DNA of 64,000 nucleotides from Arenicellales bacterium (GCA_965216735.1 OZ244198.1:4927478-4991477), one strand, 5' to 3'; positions 7,856 through 58,571 are shown, counted from the stretch's first letter. Notes: generated by a model not told the origin, from the letters alone. Numbers and translations: made by a program.

Positions 7856-10279
7856 ATGAAAGAGCGTGTGCAGGTAGTGATTGTCGGTGGTGGCATCATG
7901 GGTACCAGTTTGTTGTATCACCTGACGAAAGAGGGATGGACGGATTGTGCTCTGATTGAAAAATCGGAGTTGACTTCCGGTTCTACCTGGCACGCTGCTG
8001 GGCAGGTCACCCACTCGGTGTCCGGATTTGCCCTGGGCAAGATGGCGGGTTATGCCATCGAATTGTATCCGACGTTGGAAGCCGAGACTGGTCAATCCGT
8101 GACCTGGCACGGTTGTGGCAGTCTGCGCATGGCTTACAGCGATGACGAAGTCGACTGGTTGCGCTATACCATGAGTGTCGGCCGCGGTTTGGGTTTTGAG
8201 ATGGCGATTATCTCACCTGAAGAAATCGCGGCCATTCATCCCTTTTATAACTTGGACGGCATCCAAGCCGCGTTGCACACACCAAACGACGGTCATGTCG
8301 ATCCGGCCGGCGCGTGTTTCGCGCTCGCGAAAGGCGCGCGGCAAATGGGTGCGACGATCATTCGCAATACCCGTGTCACTGACATAAGGCAAACACCGAA
8401 CGGTGAATGGAACGTTATTACGGAAAAGGGAAATATCATTTGCGAACATGTAGTTAACGCGGGAGGCACTTACGCCCGCCAAATCGGCGCATGGGTCGGT
8501 TTGGATTTACCCATTACCAATATGACCCATCATTATTTGGTCACCGATACAGTGCCGGAGTTTGCCGATCTGGGCAAGGAATTACCGGTGGTGCGTGACG
8601 ACCGCCAGGTCAGCGGTTATATCCGCATGGAACAAAAAAGCGGTCTCATCGGTGTTTATGAAAAAGCTAACCCTAATACCGTTTGGGATGACGGCACGCC
8701 GTGGGATGTGGATCACGAATTGTTCGAGGCGGACTATGACCGCATCATGCCGTGGTTAGAGAATTCCTTTGAACGTATGCCTGTCTTGGCGGAGCTCGGT
8801 ATCAAGCGTGTGGTGCACGGCGCCATCACCCATCCACCGGACGGAAACATGTTACTCGGTCCGGCACCGGGGCGGAAAAACTTTTGGTGTTGTTGTGGTT
8901 CGCAAATTGGCATTGCCTGGGGGCCGGGTGCGGGCAAGTACTTGGCCCAGTGGATGGTGTATGGCGCAGCGGAAATCAACATGCGCGATTTCGATCCGCG
9001 CCGTTATGGTGCCTTCGCCGATCGCGAGTATCAAATCATCAAGGCCAAGGAAGACTATTTATTACGGCATGAAATACCTTATCCGGGATTTAACCGAACC
9101 GATGGCCGTCCGGTCAAAACCAGTCCGTTGTATGACCGGCTCAAACAGGCAGGTGCGGTTTATGAAGAGGTGTATGGTTGGGAACGGCCACGATGGTTTG
9201 CCCGTGACGGTATGGAGCGAAAAGATGTGCACAGTTTCCGGCACACAACTTGGTTCGACGCCGTAGCGGCCGAGTGCCGGGCGGTACGTGAGCAGGCAGG
9301 TATCATGGATATCTCGGCATTCAGTAAACTGATCGTTAGCGGCGACGATGCAGAAACTTTTTTGAACCGCATGGCGGCGAACCGGGTTCCGCGCAAAACC
9401 GGCGGTATTGTTCTTACCCATTTACTGAACCGCAAAGGAACCATAGAGGCGGAAGTCACCATCGCGCGTACTGGCGACGAAACGTTCTACTTAGTGTTTG
9501 CTGCTTTTTTTGAACAACGCGTTTTGGATTGGCTAATCCAGCATAAGGCGACGGGCGAGAATGCAAGTATTGAAAATATCTCCGAATCATTTGGTGCGTT
9601 GGCGCTGTCCGGCCCTCGTGCTCGAGATGTGTTATCCCAAGTAACCAGTGCCGACCTATCCAACGAGGACTTTCCGTGGTTAAGAGCAAAGGTAATTAAT
9701 ATTGACGGCGTAAGTGTGATTGCCTTGCGTTTGTCGTATGTGGGTGAGCTGGGGTGGGAACTGCATTTACCGATGGAAAAGTTGAAAAATGTATATGATG
9801 CTCTGTGGCGGGCAGGACAAGCTCAAGGTATCGAAAATTTTGGCTCCTACGCTATGAACAGTATGCGCTTGGAGAAGGCATTCAAAGGTGCAAGCGAACT
9901 CACCAACGAAGTGACGCTTCCGGAAGCGGATGTCATGCGATTTGTGAAATTGAATAAACCTGATTTCATCGGCCGTGATCGCACTATCCAAAGCATGGAA
10001 AACGCGTTGCCATGGAAATGTGTTTATCTTCAGATGGATAATGATGATGCCGATTGCCACGGTGGTGAGACGGTCTATCACCAAGGCCGCCGCGTGGGCG
10101 CAGTCAGTTCTGGCGGTTATGGCCATACGGTCCAGAAAAGCCTGGCCTTTGCCTATGTGGAACCCGCCGCAGCGGTGCCGGGTACCACGCTCGAGGTACT
10201 GGTGCTGAATCAGATACTCCCCGCTCAAGTTTTAAATCAACCCGTATATGATGCAAACAATGAAAAGCCTCGCGCCTAA
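7856..10279 (+). CDS. FAD-dependent oxidoreductase fused to a GcvT aminomethyltransferase domain (dimethylglycine/sarcosine dehydrogenase family)
   Basis: Dinucleotide-binding 'VVIVGGGIMGTSLLYHL'. About 800 aa with a C-terminal GcvT-like region ('LSYVGELGWELH', 'GGETVY..GRRVGAVSSGGYGHT'). ATG at 7856 is preferred over the track's TTG at 7847. Confidence 0.9.
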   Translation: MKERVQVVIVGGGIMGTSLLYHLTKEGWTDCALIEKSELTSGSTWHAAGQVTHSVSGFALGKMAGYAIELYPTLEAETGQSVTWHGCGSLRMAYSDDEVDWLRYTMSVGRGLGFEMAIISPEEIAAIHPFYNLDGIQAALHTPNDGHVDPAGACFALAKGARQMGATIIRNTRVTDIRQTPNGEWNVITEKGNIICEHVVNAGGTYARQIGAWVGLDLPITNMTHHYLVTDTVPEFADLGKELPVVRDDRQVSGYIRMEQKSGLIGVYEKANPNTVWDDGTPWDVDHELFEADYDRIMPWLENSFERMPVLAELGIKRVVHGAITHPPDGNMLLGPAPGRKNFWCCCGSQIGIAWGPGAGKYLAQWMVYGAAEINMRDFDPRRYGAFADREYQIIKAKEDYLLRHEIPYPGFNRTDGRPVKTSPLYDRLKQAGAVYEEVYGWERPRWFARDGMERKDVHSFRHTTWFDAVAAECRAVREQAGIMDISAFSKLIVSGDDAETFLNRMAANRVPRKTGGIVLTHLLNRKGTIEAEVTIARTGDETFYLVFAAFFEQRVLDWLIQHKATGENASIENISESFGALALSGPRARDVLSQVTSADLSNEDFPWLRAKVINIDGVSVIALRLSYVGELGWELHLPMEKLKNVYDALWRAGQAQGIENFGSYAMNSMRLEKAFKGASELTNEVTLPEADVMRFVKLNKPDFIGRDRTIQSMENALPWKCVYLQMDNDDADCHGGETVYHQGRRVGAVSSGGYGHTVQKSLAFAYVEPAAAVPGTTLEVLVLNQILPAQVLNQPVYDANNEKPRA

Positions 10280-18260: not shown

Positions 18261-18578
18261 ATGGCAGCAAAGAAGAAGCGTACTAAGAAGAAGGCGGGTA
18301 AGAAGACCGCAAAGAAACGAGTCGCCAAACGGAAGGCGACAAAGAAAAAGGCTAAAAAGAAGGTAGCTAAACGTAGACCGGCTAAGAAGAAGGCCACAAG
18401 AAAAAAAGCTACTAAGAAAAAAGCGACAAAGAAAAAAGCCAAGAAAAAGGCTAAAAAGAAGGTAGCTAAACGTAGACCGGCTAAGAAAAAAGCCAAGAAA
18501 AAGGCTACTAAGAAAAAAGCGACAAAGAAAAAGGCTACGCGGAAAAAGGTTGCAAGGAGAACAACAAAAAAAAAATAA
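18261..18578 (+). CDS. Histone H1-like / AlgP-like Lys-Ala-rich basic nucleoid protein
   Basis: 105 aa, almost entirely K/A/R/T ('KKKATKKKA' repeats). Strong RBS AAGAGGAGGA, and a canonical terminator follows. Confidence 0.8.
   Translation: MAAKKKRTKKKAGKKTAKKRVAKRKATKKKAKKKVAKRRPAKKKATRKKATKKKATKKKAKKKAKKKVAKRRPAKKKAKKKATKKKATKKKATRKKVARRTTKKK
18341..18532 (+). repeat. In-frame 96-99 bp tandem duplication inside the histone-like gene
   Basis: 'GGCTAAAAAGAAGGTAGCTAAACGTAGACCGGCTAAGAA' occurs at 18350 and 18449 (offset 99). 'GCTACTAAGAAAAAAGCGACAAAGAAAAA' occurs at 18408 and 18504 (offset 96). Confidence 0.8.
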
Positions 18579-31227: not shown

Positions 31228-31290
31228 ATTTTGCATCTTATGTAACGGCAATAGATGTAGCACTGACCATCTCGAGTTCTCCTTAAAAAA

Positions 31291-31533
31291 CATGTCGTCC
31301 TGCGCTTTCAGCGCTTAGGAAGAGTGACTTTCTTTTGCGCGAAAAGAAAGTCACAAAAAAAGCGTGCCCCTGCGTTCTGATTCCTAACGGAACTGCCCTC
31401 ACCGAAAGCCCAATGTCAAACAACAAGGGCAACGGGTGGGTTCCACGAATCATCCACGATTCGGCGAACCTTACCGACATTCTTGTTCAATTATCCCTGC
31501 AACCGTGTTTCGTCTCGGCAAAACGCAAAGGGG
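31291..31533 (+). repeat. Copy A of a dispersed non-coding element (partner at 46667-46873); candidate structured RNA
   Basis: Shared blocks with copy B: 'AAAGCG(T/C)GCCCCTG(C/T)GTTCTG', 'CCGAAAGCC', 'CGAATCATCCACGATT(C/T)GGCGAACCT', 'TCCCTGCAACCGT(G/C)TTTCGT(C/T)TCGGCA(A/G)AACGC'. The ORFs called over the two copies are in different frames across the shared blocks. Confidence 0.7.
31324..31361 (+). repeat. Perfect 13-bp inverted repeat plus A7, present only in copy A of the element
   Basis: GTGACTTTCTTTT-gcgcg-AAAAGAAAGTCAC followed by AAAAAAA. There is no counterpart at the equivalent position of copy B. Confidence 0.7.
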
Positions 31534-31906
31534 TAGAGAATGTTCGGACAGATTGATGCTGCGTAATGAATCAGAATCGAAGGGCGTCAAAATAGATCTA
31601 GAGTAATGTTTTCCTACATCCTACTTCTCCAGATTTGCGATCGCTTTTTGTCAGCCGTTGTTGAAAAAAATATGCAACGTTACCCAACTTGACAGGTAAG
31701 TGAATGCGGCGCAGACTTTATAGAGAATGCCTATATTTTTTAAGTCGTTTCGGTATATTTGTATGGGCGTTCAGGGAGCGAATGATCAAAAAGCCATGAT
31801 CGAACGGCGTTGTGGCGAAGATCATTGCATGGCTGTCGGCATAAGCTGAGCTATGAGGTCTCTATGTCGACAATATCTAACAAATATCCAAGGGAGGAAT
31901 CCCACA

Positions 31907-32389
31907 ATGACTTTAAAATTACCATTCCTTAGTACTATTGCTGTCGCTGCGACCTTCGCTACCATACCGACCCTCGCTGACGCTTTGCGTTCCAATGTCG
32001 CGTTTAACAACAGCATCTCCGAGCAGACTTCGGACCAACCAGAAAACGGAGTCAAAGTTTCCTACCAGGTTACGCTACAGGGCGGCGATCTCGACGGTTG
32101 TACTATTGACATCGTTGAGGCTCTGTATGGCCGTGATGAAGGCGCTTGGGGAATTTTTGATATCGTGGGCGACGTGAGTTGTGCCAGCGGTAGTTTTTCC
32201 TACACTTCGTCCGGCTCTTGGGATGGCAACGGATTCCACGCCTCTGGCGATATCAAAGAAGGCAGTGGCAGCGGAGATTTCGAAGGCATCACTGGCCGTG
32301 TCGCGCAGCTTGGCGGTTCCGTAGCTGTTGCAGCAGATGAATCTCTGGATGTTTCCTATGAACTGGTCGTCGATAAAGCTGGCGACTGA
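31907..32389 (+). CDS. Secreted hypothetical protein
   Basis: The ATG at 31907 is preceded by AAGGGAGGA. Signal peptide 'MTLKLPFLSTIAVAATFATIPTLADA'. No family recognised. A terminator follows. Confidence 0.55.
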   Translation: MTLKLPFLSTIAVAATFATIPTLADALRSNVAFNNSISEQTSDQPENGVKVSYQVTLQGGDLDGCTIDIVEALYGRDEGAWGIFDIVGDVSCASGSFSYTSSGSWDGNGFHASGDIKEGSGSGDFEGITGRVAQLGGSVAVAADESLDVSYELVVDKAGD

Positions 32390-32406
32390 GTGATTCTCTA
32401 TCATTT

Positions 32407-32440
32407 TGGCGGCGTCGAGATTCAGGCGCCGCCGGTTATT
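32407..32440 (+). terminator. Probable rho-independent terminator
   Basis: GGCGGCG-(12 nt)-CGCCGCC followed by GGTTATTTTA, 18 nt after the stop codon. Confidence 0.5.
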
Positions 32441-32623
32441 TTAGCTCATGACGGATCATTCTGGAAAAAACGTTGACTTAACGTAGTCTTCTGAACGCTG
32501 AGATCCATTCCATGATGGTAAAATATGTCCGCTGCAGACATTGCGTCATCAATCCCTTTCTAAACACCTAAGTTTAGCCTCCGTAAACCGCAAAGAGGAT
32601 AGATGATTGGTCAAGGAAGATCG

Positions 32624-33220
32624 TTACGTACTCGATTCGTCATTTGCATGTGAACCCAATACTTCGGAGAGACGTCCAGTAATTCGCTCCATTGTCGCTT
32701 CGGAGCGTTCAAATCCATAGACCGTGAGTGGGAAGTTCAAAGGTTTTTGAATCTCCCAAATACGTTCATGCTCGCTCGGTGGCAGTATTTGCGCTGGATT
32801 TCCGACAGCAACCCAGCCAATGGGTACAGTCTCTCCAGTGGCTAATTGGGTCTTGACGTGTACGACGCCGTTAACGCGCACCTCGCTGCCTTTACCAAGA
32901 TGAGCCGAATGAAACACAGCAGCTCCCGTTGCGATGAAAACTTCGTCCTCCACGGTACAACCTACGACATGAGCATTCGGGCCGACGAGACAATTGTTGC
33001 CAATACTCATGGGATGACGGGCCGAGCTTCGAAGGACGGCGTTCTCCATAATAATGCACTCGCTACCAATAGATATAGAGCCACTCTCGGCGATAATTTG
33101 AGCGCCATACATGATTCGGCAACCTGGATCTACTGTGACGTTGCCGCAGACAACAGCATTTGGCGCGACCCAAGCTGTCGGATCGATCTGCGGTAGAACT
33201 CCATCATGTTTAATAAGCAT
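32624..33220 (-). CDS. Left-handed beta-helix (hexapeptide repeat) protein, gamma-carbonic-anhydrase/PaaY-like
   Basis: 'PQIDPTAWVAPNAVVCGNVTVDPGCRIMYGAQI...SIGSECIIMENAVL...IGNNCLVGPNAHVVGCTVEDEVFIATGAAV' shows a hexapeptide periodicity typical of the gamma-CA-like family. Confidence 0.75.
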   Translation of the reverse strand: MLIKHDGVLPQIDPTAWVAPNAVVCGNVTVDPGCRIMYGAQIIAESGSISIGSECIIMENAVLRSSARHPMSIGNNCLVGPNAHVVGCTVEDEVFIATGAAVFHSAHLGKGSEVRVNGVVHVKTQLATGETVPIGWVAVGNPAQILPPSEHERIWEIQKPLNFPLTVYGFERSEATMERITGRLSEVLGSHANDESST

Positions 33221-46211: not shown

Positions 46212-46651
46212 TCAGTACTGAACTCGTAGGCTTATTGTTTGTAGTAGCAGGTATGTTGCTGTGTTTTGGCATGATTTCAGGTCACTTCAAATTAAAGAGC
46301 ATGCAAAATTGACCTACTACTGAAGGTGTTGTGATCAAATCGAAAGTCGTGGGGCTAGTAGAAAGCGAAAACAAAACACAACTGCAGATTAAATATCAAT
46401 ACTCAGTCAATAAGGAGACATTTGAGGGGCACAAAATTCATCTGTTATACGGTTCTAAGTCTAAGGAATCAGCACTCGAACGCATGTACAAATACTTAGA
46501 AGGCTCAAGAGTGTCAATTTTCTATAATCCAAAAAAGCTAAAGGACTCTTATTTGGAAACTAATTGTCCAGTAGAACTTGTGGTTAGTTTTGGATTAGGC
46601 GGAATTGTTTTCATAATTGCAGGTATAGGATTGTTTTTAGAGTTAATTTGA
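46208..46651 (+). pseudogene. DUF3592 membrane protein gene interrupted by one in-frame TGA at the conserved Trp position
   Basis: The frame opens at ATG 46208 (ATGA overlap with the lipase stop). It encodes an N-terminal TM helix, then 'QN*PTTEGVVIKSKV' where the family has 'WP.T.G.V', with TGA at 46310-46312. The remainder (track ORF 46331-46651) carries the DUF3592 core and a C-terminal TM helix. Confidence 0.7.
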
Positions 46652-46666
46652 CGATGCTCTTGAAAT

Positions 46667-46873
46667 CATTTCGTCCCACGCTTTTAGCGCGCAACGAAAA
46701 TAGCCAAAGAAAGCGCGCCCCTGTGTTCTGGTTCCTGAAAGGAACTTCCCTTGCCGAAAGCCGTTTGTGGCGGGCCGGTTCGACGAATCATCCACGATTT
46801 GGCGAACCTCAAATCGACCTCCGTGTCGATTTGTCCCTGCAACCGTCTTTCGTTTCGGCAGAACGCTAAGGGA
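46667..46873 (+). repeat. Copy B of the dispersed non-coding element (partner at 31291-31533)
   Basis: Same orientation and block order as copy A. It starts 16 nt after the DUF3592 stop. It contains a perfect 8-bp hairpin AAATCGAC-ctccgt-GTCGATTT that is only weakly retained in copy A. Confidence 0.7.
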
Positions 46874-46992
46874 GGAAGGAGGTAGGAGTAAGCCTGCTCA
46901 CGAAGGGTATCACTGGATACTTATTTCATGTTCCAGGCTCTGATGGCGGTACATTCCTGTATCAACGTTCAGGGTATAGCGATTTTTGTTGT

Positions 46993-50058: not shown

Positions 50059-50189
50059 TGTCGATGGATTGTTCCAAAATCATCTTTTTACTACTCTCAA
50101 CGTGGGCAGGTCACCGGTGATCTGTCCACAACCTGGTTCGGGACACCTTCCTCAGACACCCCCACCTAGTATCCGAATCAGGCACTATA

Positions 50190-50217
50190 CCCCCCGATCC
50201 GTCGGGGGGTTTTTTTC
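50190..50217 (+). terminator. Strong rho-independent terminator with no upstream protein gene
   Basis: CCCCCCGA-tccg-TCGGGGGG followed by T7, about 100 nt upstream of the algZ start. Confidence 0.8.
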
Positions 50218-50313
50218 TGTGCTTGTACCTAATCCGCTAATAAATCATTCGACAGGCATGGTGCTGCCTGATTCTGTGCGTCGGTCTGATATGCGGTCGA
50301 ATTCTTCTGGGCG

Positions 50314-56393: not shown

Positions 56394-57941
56394 TTGACTC
56401 AAGCACTACTCGGTATTGATCTGGGTGCAAGCGGCCTCAAAGCAACCATCGTCTGTCCGGACGGCGGTGATGTATTGGGAGCAAGTTCGCATCCGATAAG
56501 TACGCAACGACCACAAGCGAATTGGTCCGAGCAAAATCCGTTCGATTGGTACCACGCATTATGTATCGCTGTGCCAAAAGCACTGGCCAAGAGCAAGCTC
56601 GATTCCAGTGCCGTCAAGGGCATTGCTATTAGCGCCGGCGCTCACATTCCGGTGTTGCTGGATAAGAATGACAAGATTATTCGTCCGGCCATTATGTGGA
56701 ATGATCAACGTAGCGCGACCCAGGCACTAGCGTTGGAAGAACAACACGGCGATCTGATTATTGGCAAATCCTTGAACAGGGTGAATCCCACTTGGTCACT
56801 GGCCATGTTGCATTGGTTACAACAACACGAACCCGAAAATATCGCTCGAGTGCACAAACTGTGTATGGCCAAGGACTATTTGCGCTTGTGTTTGACCGGT
56901 GAATGGGCAACGGATTTCGGCGATGTCATCGGTGCATTGATGGGTGATATTGAAACTCGCGCCTGGTCAGAGGAAGTTTCCAAGTCGATCGATTGGCCGG
57001 TGGACACGTTGCCACCGGTAAAAAGTGCGACCGATGTAAGTGGCGAAATTTCTACAGAGGTTGCAGGAGACACAGGTTTGAAAACGGGAACACCGGTGAT
57101 GGTGGGCAGTATTGACACGACCGTCGAATTGCTAGGTGCCGGTGTAATGGACGAAGGCCAGGCCGCGATAAAACTGGCGACGGCGGGTGTTTTATCTTTG
57201 GTGGCAAACGAACCCGTTTTAAAACCACCTATTTCCTGTTATCCGCATTTACAGAATGATCGTTACTACGTTGCGGCGGGTACTAATTCATGCGCGTCAG
57301 CCCATCAATGGGCACGCGATCAATTGGTGTTTCCGAAAGGTATTACTAACGACGGAACACTGGTTGACGGTTTCAAAGCAATGGATGATCTCGCGGCTAA
57401 AGTGGCACCCGGAAGCGACGGTCTGATTTTTCATCCTTACTTGCAAGGTGAACGCGCACCGTACTGGGATCCTGATCTGCGTGCAGACTTCCTAGGTTTG
57501 ACCATGCAACATACAAGCGCGCACATCGCCCGCGCCGTATATGAGGGCATTGCATATTCCATAAGGGACTTATTGCACGATGCCGGAGAAAAAGATTTTC
57601 ACTTTAATTCGGCACGTTTGATTGGTGGTGGAGCAAGCAGTGTCACCTGGCGTCAAATTACGGCCGATGTCACAGGACTGATGTTACATATTCCAACACA
57701 CGGTGACGCGTCGTTCGGCAGCGCATTACTGGCAGGCATTGGAATCGGCGAATTTACCGACGCTGCCGATGCGATCAATCGTTGCGTAAAAATAATCGAC
57801 CAGGTGAAACCGGATCCCGGCACACGTAGTATTTACGATACGATGTTTGATTTGTACCGGCGCGCCCAACAAGTCTTAGTGCCCATCAATCACGAATTAG
57901 CAGAGTTAAACAGACAAAATGAACTGGGCAACAAAACTTAG
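56394..57941 (+). CDS. FGGY-family carbohydrate kinase (xylulokinase-like)
   Basis: 'LLGIDLGASGLKA', 'MWNDQRS', 'GGGASSVTWRQITADV'. TTG start in the track. Confidence 0.88.
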   Translation: MTQALLGIDLGASGLKATIVCPDGGDVLGASSHPISTQRPQANWSEQNPFDWYHALCIAVPKALAKSKLDSSAVKGIAISAGAHIPVLLDKNDKIIRPAIMWNDQRSATQALALEEQHGDLIIGKSLNRVNPTWSLAMLHWLQQHEPENIARVHKLCMAKDYLRLCLTGEWATDFGDVIGALMGDIETRAWSEEVSKSIDWPVDTLPPVKSATDVSGEISTEVAGDTGLKTGTPVMVGSIDTTVELLGAGVMDEGQAAIKLATAGVLSLVANEPVLKPPISCYPHLQNDRYYVAAGTNSCASAHQWARDQLVFPKGITNDGTLVDGFKAMDDLAAKVAPGSDGLIFHPYLQGERAPYWDPDLRADFLGLTMQHTSAHIARAVYEGIAYSIRDLLHDAGEKDFHFNSARLIGGGASSVTWRQITADVTGLMLHIPTHGDASFGSALLAGIGIGEFTDAADAINRCVKIIDQVKPDPGTRSIYDTMFDLYRRAQQVLVPINHELAELNRQNELGNKT

Positions 57942-58430: not shown

Positions 58431-58571
58431 TCGATAGACATTAGGAAGCCAAATCCTATGTCAGTCCCGACTTCAAGAACCGATGATGTCCATTCGAAAA
58501 TGTTCGATGTGTATCGCTGCGCACAACGCGCGTTGGTACCCGTTAGCCACGAATTAGCGAACATCAAATGA
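58431..58571 (+). pseudogene. Remnant of an FGGY kinase 3' end (diverged duplicate of the C-terminus of the gene at 56394-57941)
   Basis: 'SIDIRKPNP...SKMFDVYRCAQRALVPVSHELANIK*' parallels the intact gene's 'IIDQVKPDP...YDTMFDLYRRAQQVLVPINHELAELN'. There is no upstream kinase body. Confidence 0.6.

Follow-up and report, generated by a model that had tools for sequence, protein, structure and literature searches.

A duplicated, non-coding multi-hairpin element in an Arenicellales genome, tentatively likened to the TwoAYGGAY repeats

The TwoAYGGAY RNA motif of Weinberg et al. 2010 corresponds to Rfam family RF01731 (PMC2864571). In the TwoAYGGAY elements of Pseudomonadota the basal stem is elongated and is accompanied by a 3' pseudoknot and three extra hairpins, among them one located inside the basal stem and a terminal hairpin at the 3' end (10.64898/2026.09.22.753630). 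Their copy number ranges from a few to hundreds depending on the strain, and short GMTBT(T) repeats and REP arrays frequently lie beside them (10.64898/2026.09.22.753630). These elements have the appearance of mobile elements and may serve as sponges for Csr/Rsm proteins (10.64898/2026.09.22.753630). The element described here occurs twice in a 64-kb stretch of DNA from an Arenicellales bacterium (the window, 64,000 nucleotides in full), and the minus strand of one of its copies shows a near-threshold likeness to this family.

The two copies lie in the same orientation, copy A at 31291-31533 and copy B at 46667-46873, and align by blastn with 74.5% identity over 204 columns (E=6e-32); in a MAFFT alignment, column identity reaches 82% across the complete element and 86% within its core. 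With a length of approximately 210-245 bases, the element is the sole dispersed repeat recovered by a repeat scan of the window, and a third copy was not found in the 64 kb by blastn, by nhmmer --max or by three block patterns allowing 3 mismatches (0 matches expected in shuffles). Conservation between the copies is blocky, hairpin-sized indels set them apart, and the sequences flanking them are unrelated to each other. The nhmmer profile also matches itself on the reverse strand (E=0.0017), reflecting palindromic symmetry. Copy A begins 63 nt after the stop codon of a tlpA-like gene and copy B 15 nt after that of a DUF3592 gene. The coordinates, the shared strand and the placement shortly after plus-strand genes had all been proposed in a sequence-only reading of this DNA and are confirmed, and the pair is a genuine duplicated element.

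The element is non-coding. The copies differ in length by indels of 1, 2, 14 and ~25 nt, and because these are not multiples of three, no reading frame stays both open and conserved. The shared block CGAATCATCCACGATT falls in different frames of the two overlapping ORFs (31335-31556 and 46648-46869), at offsets of 111 and 136 nt from their respective starts, as had been noted earlier. A composite of the open stretches in all six frames of both copies retrieved no protein at E<=10 among 5.8 billion. The earlier judgement that coding was unlikely is thus upheld by the frame-breaking indels and by the lack of any protein match.

Both copies are assembled from discrete palindromic modules, which are listed below by window coordinates; all are unstranded except the Rfam match in the last line.

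31291-31533, unstranded: copy A, whole unit as aligned with copy B (nhmmer profile self-match 31288-31547)
46667-46873, unstranded: copy B, with the better-preserved fold (model pairs 49/50 on plus, 45/50 on minus)
31295-31320, unstranded: copy A end module, hairpin GCGCT-TTC-AGCGC (5' end on plus, 3' end on minus)
46669-46699, unstranded: copy B end module, a hairpin with TTTCGT...ACGAAA around CGCT-TTT-AGCG
31324-31354, unstranded: perfect 13-bp palindrome GTGACTTTCTTTTGCGCGAAAAGAAAGTCAC, copy A only, between end module and core (gap in copy B)
31367-31379, unstranded: copy A basal (closing) helix, left arm CCCCTGCGTTCTG, pairing with 31519-31533
31519-31533, unstranded: copy A basal helix, right arm CAAAACGCAAAGGGG, pairing with 31367-31379
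46718-46730, unstranded: copy B basal helix, left arm CCCCTGTGTTCTG, pairing with 46859-46872
46859-46872, unstranded: copy B basal helix, right arm CAGAACGCTAAGGG, pairing with 46718-46730
31380-31393, unstranded: copy A small hairpin ATTCC-TAAC-GGAAC within the basal stem (end pair A.C on plus, G.U on minus)
46731-46745, unstranded: copy B small hairpin GTTCC-TGAAA-GGAAC
31408-31430, unstranded: extra hairpin GCCC...GGGC, copy A only (14-nt insertion relative to copy B)
31439-31470, unstranded: hairpin H2 of copy A, the best-conserved block (loop ATCCAC on plus, GUGGAU on minus)
46777-46808, unstranded: copy B hairpin H2, 11-bp stem, minus-strand loop GUGGAU
46810-46833, unstranded: copy B hairpin H1, perfect 9-bp stem, minus-strand loop ACGGAG
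31474-31489, unstranded: copy A remnant of H1, 3 pairs in the register of copy B, minus-strand loop AAGAAU without GGA
31494-31520, unstranded: conserved block TCCCTGCAACCGTGTTTCGTCTCGGCA in copy A, providing the right-hand strand for the inner basal helices
46834-46860, unstranded: copy B counterpart of the conserved block TCCCTGCAACCGTGTTTCGTCTCGGCA
31578-31589, unstranded: candidate outlying block CGAAGGGCGTCA to the right of copy A, membership uncertain
46901-46912, unstranded: candidate outlying block CGAAGGGTATCA to the right of copy B, membership uncertain
46771-46839, minus strand: sub-threshold match to Rfam TwoAYGGAY (RF01731) that spans H1, H2 and the inner part of the basal stem in copy B

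The helices named earlier, namely the closing helix, the CGAATC/GATTYG hairpin (H2) and the RTTCC/GGAAC hairpin, are present in both copies. H2 is the sole helix common to the minimum-energy folds of the two, and H1 is the segment most diverged between them. The copy-A-only palindrome at 31324-31354 is unique in the window and is followed on the plus strand by a run of A7 (U7 before the palindrome on the minus strand). Beyond the copies, at distances of 45 nt (A) and 28 nt (B), lie the outlying blocks with the consensus CGAAGGG(C/T)(G/A)TCA; since a conserved block is found to the right of both copies, the unit may reach further than the limits given above. On the minus strand these blocks are upstream and read TTGACG and GTGATA, which would make a poor -35-like hexamer.

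No Rfam family reaches its gathering threshold anywhere in the window, and to that extent the earlier statement that the element was not recognised as any common RNA family stands; what it missed is that the top sub-threshold Rfam match in all 64 kb belongs to TwoAYGGAY and lies in copy B, on the strand opposite to the one that had been proposed as RNA. This match reaches 39.2 bits, short of the gathering threshold of 43, in DNA whose richness in hairpins may inflate scores of this type. Its E-value amounts to 0.01 for the window and to 7.4e-5 when 451 nt are searched, and the local value is the relevant one, the region having been selected ahead of any Rfam search. The alignment agrees at the conserved junction letters CAG, AG and CGG as well as at the two YGGA loops of copy B, and the chance that YGGA would occupy the loops of two adjacent hairpins on the same strand is approximately 1e-4. 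Of the two hairpins on a basal stem, copy B has both (a 9-bp H1 and an 11-bp H2), and copy A keeps H2 intact but has just 3 in-register pairs left of H1. For copy A there is no TwoAYGGAY match at E<=10 in searches of 551 nt or of its 81-nt core, so the match depends on H1 of copy B.

Several attributes of the family are present and others are not. The element is multi-copy and intergenic, and its presence varies between related genomes (two copies here, absent in relatives L010, L011, L015 and L016). The strict AYGGAY loop is absent: copy B has ACGGAG and GUGGAU, which keep the YGGA core with one flank off in each, and copy A has GUGGAU and AAGAAU. A GMTBT(T) array, frequent in the family although not obligatory, was not found within 200 nt upstream (0-1 occurrences on the minus strand and 2 on the plus strand, against a window null of 1.4±1.1), and the minus strand of the copies carries no excess of GGA (5 and 6 against 4.3 expected). 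No TwoAYGGAY match was obtained in 60 kb of relatives' DNA. As the gathering score is not reached, the element is filed as TwoAYGGAY-like and not as a member of the family.

Authentic TwoAYGGAY sequences were sought in plasmids and viral contigs. A blastn comparison of the Rfam TwoAYGGAY consensus with plasmids returned unrelated hairpins only, and a TwoAYGGAY pattern scan of IMG/VR gave approximately the chance number of matches, none at the gathering threshold. One of the viral contigs, L042 (IMG/VR UViG_3300035491_000319), carries on the minus strand at 2320-2357 of its reverse complement a GC-rich sequence with the look of a TwoAYGGAY core, in which two adjacent AUGGAU-loop hairpins stand on a long basal stem; nothing in it reaches the Rfam gathering threshold.

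Searches for further copies of the element itself were similarly negative. A two-block exact pattern run against 596 Gb of species-representative genomes yielded 9 matches, about the number expected by chance and none homologous. Two metagenome pattern scans gave 0 matches and 2 chance matches in coding DNA, four scans of IMG/VR viral contigs gave seed-length matches only, and plasmids gave nothing by blastn. The further copies in relatives that had been suggested as a check on the element did not emerge: none was found at syntenic sites, and the scans of collections returned only chance matches.

Other repeats and structures were encountered in the window. A 59-nt direct repeat of 73% identity at 57843-57901 and 58500-58558, its two units spaced 657 nt apart, probably represents paralogous gene segments. 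On the plus strand, 18261-18578 encodes a 105-aa ORF composed almost entirely of Lys, Ala, Thr and Arg (KKKATKKKAKKK...) in diverged in-frame tandem repeats, resembling a basic protein of the histone-H1-like or AlgP-like type. Weak matches to anti-hemB (RF02837; 23.2 and 22.3 bits against a threshold of 49.5) occur at 50138-50218 on the plus strand and at 8039-8119 on the minus strand of L015; both lie in the same syntenic gap, from argH to a LytS-type histidine kinase, and their coincidence suggests that this gap may hold a conserved structured intergenic sequence.

All scanned ORFs of at least 150 aa in the window are housekeeping or metabolic by Pfam, and among these and two shorter ORFs no transposase, integrase, reverse transcriptase, TnpB, IscB or IS110 recombinase was detected. 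In the nearest relatives, TlpA and LysA are 82-83% identical to the proteins encoded in the window, and the 15-kb stretch that separates the copies has kept its gene order. The element is missing at both syntenic sites in L010, L011, L015 and L016: lipase and lysA are adjacent in L015 and L016, with neither the DUF3592 gene nor copy B, and downstream of tlpA the relatives have other genes and other REP-like palindromes. This absence in relatives with differing gene content places both copies in lineage-variable gaps, and both copy-bearing gaps are hotspots of gene gain and loss. Lineage-specific genes, judged against the closest relatives, are found after copy A (DUF3224-like and hexapeptide-transferase genes, 31853-33220) and before copy B (the DUF3592 gene, 46331-46651); the 15 kb around them are syntenic.

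Palindromes of the Pseudomonas REP/REPIN style are present in the relatives' gaps, at 9526-9596 and 9750-9790 of L011, 10660-10730 of L010 and in the gap 2782-3244 of L016, with the sequences GTAGGAGCGAGCTTGCTCGCGAA...TTCGCGAGCAAGCTCGCTCCTAC and GCGGATAAGTCGCGTAGCG.C.CCATCCGC; none of these emerged from the repeat scan of the window. A 29-nt match of 83% identity between the syntenic gap of L011 and the end module was considered and set aside as not significant (score 23 against a null of 18.7±2.2; nhmmer E=1.5). Copy B is situated where the plus-strand DUF3592 gene and the minus-strand lysA gene converge, between their 3' ends, so that at this site a 3'-UTR reading is possible for either strand. 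Consensus scans, which are weak tests, detected no promoter or intrinsic terminator on either strand of either copy; the promoter and terminator of its own that a stand-alone small RNA gene would have were not found by them.

The sequence-only reading had regarded the element as a candidate structured RNA and had held that its substitutions were tolerated only if the plus strand was the RNA. The element does have the potential to fold, being more stable than shuffled sequences on both strands (z-scores for the two copies of -4.3 and -2.9 on plus, -2.4 and -1.8 on minus). The gap between the strands arises from the base composition of the null, as absolute energies are equal, with a mean minimum free energy of the core of -59.8 kcal/mol on plus versus -58.8 kcal/mol on minus. 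The two minimum-energy folds have a single hairpin in common, and the structure conservation index of 0.57 is not distinguishable from that of column-shuffled alignments (0.53±0.07, with 27% of shuffles as high). The general notion of a stably folding sequence is therefore retained, whereas plus-strand specificity is not.

The substitutions themselves were counted in a model of 50 pairs, composed of the helices named in the sequence-only reading and those common to both folds, and therefore derived in part from the fold of copy B. Of these pairs, 37 are invariant, 4 survive through a wobble, a single one shows a compensatory change (U-A to C-G), and the remaining 8 no longer form in one of the copies. 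Read on plus, 43/50 pairs form in copy A and 49/50 in copy B (92/100 in total); on the minus strand the corresponding values are 44/50 and 45/50 (89/100). Copy A thus leaves 7 pairs unpaired on plus and 6 on minus, and 4 of the 7 become wobble pairs when read on minus. The plus strand of copy B contains 5 G.U pairs, two of which are kept in both copies. Twelve pairs changed on one side, of which 4 still pair on plus only and 5 on minus only, where a rough neutral expectation for a DNA palindrome (a back-of-envelope estimate from transition and transversion counts) is ~3.5/12 per strand; the single compensatory pair compares with ~0.7 by chance. A shuffle control is powerless with two sequences, as 248/500 shuffles reach the observed value.

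The one-sided changes are divided about evenly between the strands, and the substitutions neither assign a strand nor demonstrate selection for structure. The individual examples that had been cited for the plus strand illustrate this division. The change in the GATT(C/T)G hairpin does favour the plus strand. In the closing helix, the C-to-T change behaves as described (G.U on plus, C.A on minus), but the A/G site leaves a C.A mismatch on the plus strand of copy A and forms G.U on minus; the change in the (A/G)TTCC hairpin also favours minus, giving an A.C mismatch on plus and G.U on minus. Nor is there support for selection on the structure, given the 8/50 pairs broken in one copy and a conservation index equal to the null. 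The lesson is that wobble-compatible changes between two sequences cannot assign a strand or prove structure, and here they are evenly divided.

A number of established classes were considered and rejected. Inverted repeats of the kind expected of a MITE are internal only (31367-31379 with 31519-31533, and a copy-A-only 24-nt pair of 75% identity), and neither copy has flanking direct repeats at any of the boundaries considered, which are imprecise. The 24-nt pair (31366-31389 with 31562-31585) is marginal and not conserved in copy B, and, H2 apart, the self reverse-complement score does not exceed that of shuffles, contrary to what a long MITE-like palindrome would give. It had been foreseen that the copies might turn out to be remnants of an IS or MITE with terminal inverted repeats and target-site duplications; neither feature was found at the unit ends. 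An integron attC site, defined by R''/L''...L'/R' boxes (RYYYAAC ... GTTRRRY) bounding a cassette, is likewise rejected, as neither end fits the core-site consensus and the copies lie 15 kb apart amid syntenic housekeeping genes. No tRNA or tmRNA was found in the window, and the earlier dismissal of attC, tRNA and tmRNA thus holds. A riboswitch or 5' leader is not compatible with copy B, which stands between convergent 3' ends and not upstream of a same-strand gene. Finally, retron msr-msd, TnpB/IscB omega RNA and IS110 bridge RNA lack both a partner domain in the scanned ORFs and an Rfam match. A csrA/rsmA gene is not in the window, which is uninformative.

The best explanation, although a tentative one, is a lineage-restricted, multi-hairpin, TwoAYGGAY-like dispersed repeat whose minus strand would be functional, with copy B near-intact and copy A decaying. 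The lack of a preference for the plus strand in thermodynamics or wobble counts was counted in favour of this reading, and the slightly better pairing of copy B on plus (49/50 versus 45/50) was counted against it. An unclassified DNA repeat of the MITE/REP/ERIC/BOX type, decaying neutrally, with RNA structure as a by-product and the TwoAYGGAY likeness due to chance, appears somewhat unlikely and yet accommodates much of the evidence: neutral-looking one-sided changes, a compensatory count and conservation index near their null values, equal folding of both strands, palindromic symmetry with a reverse-strand self-match, hairpin-sized indels between copies, and absence at relatives' sites whose gaps hold other REP-like palindromes. 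It is weakened by the lack of terminal inverted repeats at the unit ends, where homology continues to the left of the internal repeat, by the lack of a visible target-site duplication, and by the presence of just two copies in the window at 14-25% divergence. It also leaves the occurrence of YGGA in both adjacent loops unexplained.

A novel plus-strand structured RNA of ~170-240 nt, arising from the 3' UTR of the upstream gene and acting as an mRNA-stability element or a small RNA, is quite unlikely. Its appeal lies in the start of both copies 15-63 nt past plus-strand stops with no terminator between, in the stronger plus-strand z-scores, and in the 49/50 pairs of copy B with their shared G.U pairs. 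Against it stand the origin of the z-scores in null composition, the unpaired positions of copy A and a model built partly from the fold of copy B; moreover, structure conservation does not exceed that of shuffled alignments, no terminator or U-tract closes the plus-strand 3' end, and relatives have not retained the element after tlpA. Little weight is given to the proposal of a new structured RNA family from a near-unsampled gammaproteobacterial lineage, without descent from TwoAYGGAY, that would work either as a plus-strand 3'-UTR element or as a minus-strand GGA-loop RNA and whose conserved blocks (H2, TCCCTGCAACCGT and the basal helix) would be under selection. Most improbable is a relic, whether a degraded gene fragment, the end of an IS or of a guide-RNA transposon (omega or bridge RNA), a retron RNA, or the leftover of a segmental duplication; the copies do border lineage-specific genes (DUF3592; DUF3224-like and hexapeptide-transferase) and show blocky conservation, but no reading frame matches any protein, none of the mobility or partner genes listed above occurs among the ORFs of at least 150 aa in the window, there are no Rfam matches to HEARO, IS605-orfB, group II intron or retron-type families, and the flanks of the two copies are unrelated.

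If the TwoAYGGAY-like reading is correct, the minus strand would be laid out as a long interrupted basal stem carrying H1 and H2 side by side, whose loops in copy B would present YGGA as ACGGAG and GUGGAU. The small hairpin would be set in the 3' side of the basal stem, and the 3' end would consist of a terminal hairpin followed by a U-rich stretch. The element may have been copied and inserted by a process provided in trans, a route also suggested for the TwoAYGGAY elements of Pseudomonas; the lack of a mobility gene in the window fits this. Copy A would then be decaying, as its loss of H1, gain of two insertions and 7/50 (plus) or 6/50 (minus) unpaired positions suggest. The active strand, if transcribed, would be the minus strand, and its GGA loops could bind a Csr/Rsm-type protein. 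An element of this kind would be a divergent, low-copy outpost, far from Pseudomonas, of a widespread family, and the co-occurrence of an intact and a decayed copy could indicate which parts are needed. If it is not TwoAYGGAY-like, it is one more lineage-specific intergenic repeat; either way, the element by itself opens no new question.

Among known systems, the CsrB/C and RsmX/Y/Z RNAs share with the element the display of GGA in hairpin loops, which on its minus strand applies to H2 of both copies and H1 of copy B. The element differs from them in having one or two GGA loops with no enrichment of GGA (5-6 versus 4.3), and in lacking a recognisable promoter of its own, a recognisable intrinsic terminator and an Rfam match to those families. 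ERIC/IRU, BOX, Correia (NEMIS) and REP/REPIN repeats are similarly small (100-250 nt), non-coding, palindrome-rich and intergenic near gene ends, with a modular build, optional inserted hairpins and variability between related genomes, and they may be co-transcribed with neighbouring genes, as the element here may be. In contrast, they have no sequence similarity to the element, which is without terminal inverted repeats or target-site duplication at its unit ends and whose fold is a branched multi-hairpin rather than one long hairpin. TwoAYGGAY differs from the element in its loops (AYGGAY, not ACGGAG and GUGGAU) and in its upstream GMTBT(T) array, downstream REP array and divergent doublet, none of which accompanies the two copies in the window; copy B stays at 39.2 versus 43 bits, and copy A, with one hairpin degenerate, scores nothing. 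The likeness to TwoAYGGAY nevertheless extends from the adjacent YGGA-loop hairpins that share one basal stem on the minus strand of copy B and the junction letters CAG, AG and CGG to the outline, by description, of the extended Pseudomonadota form, with its elongated basal stem, a hairpin within it and a 3' terminal hairpin, and it includes an intergenic location, more than one copy, presence or absence between related genomes, and the same host phylum.
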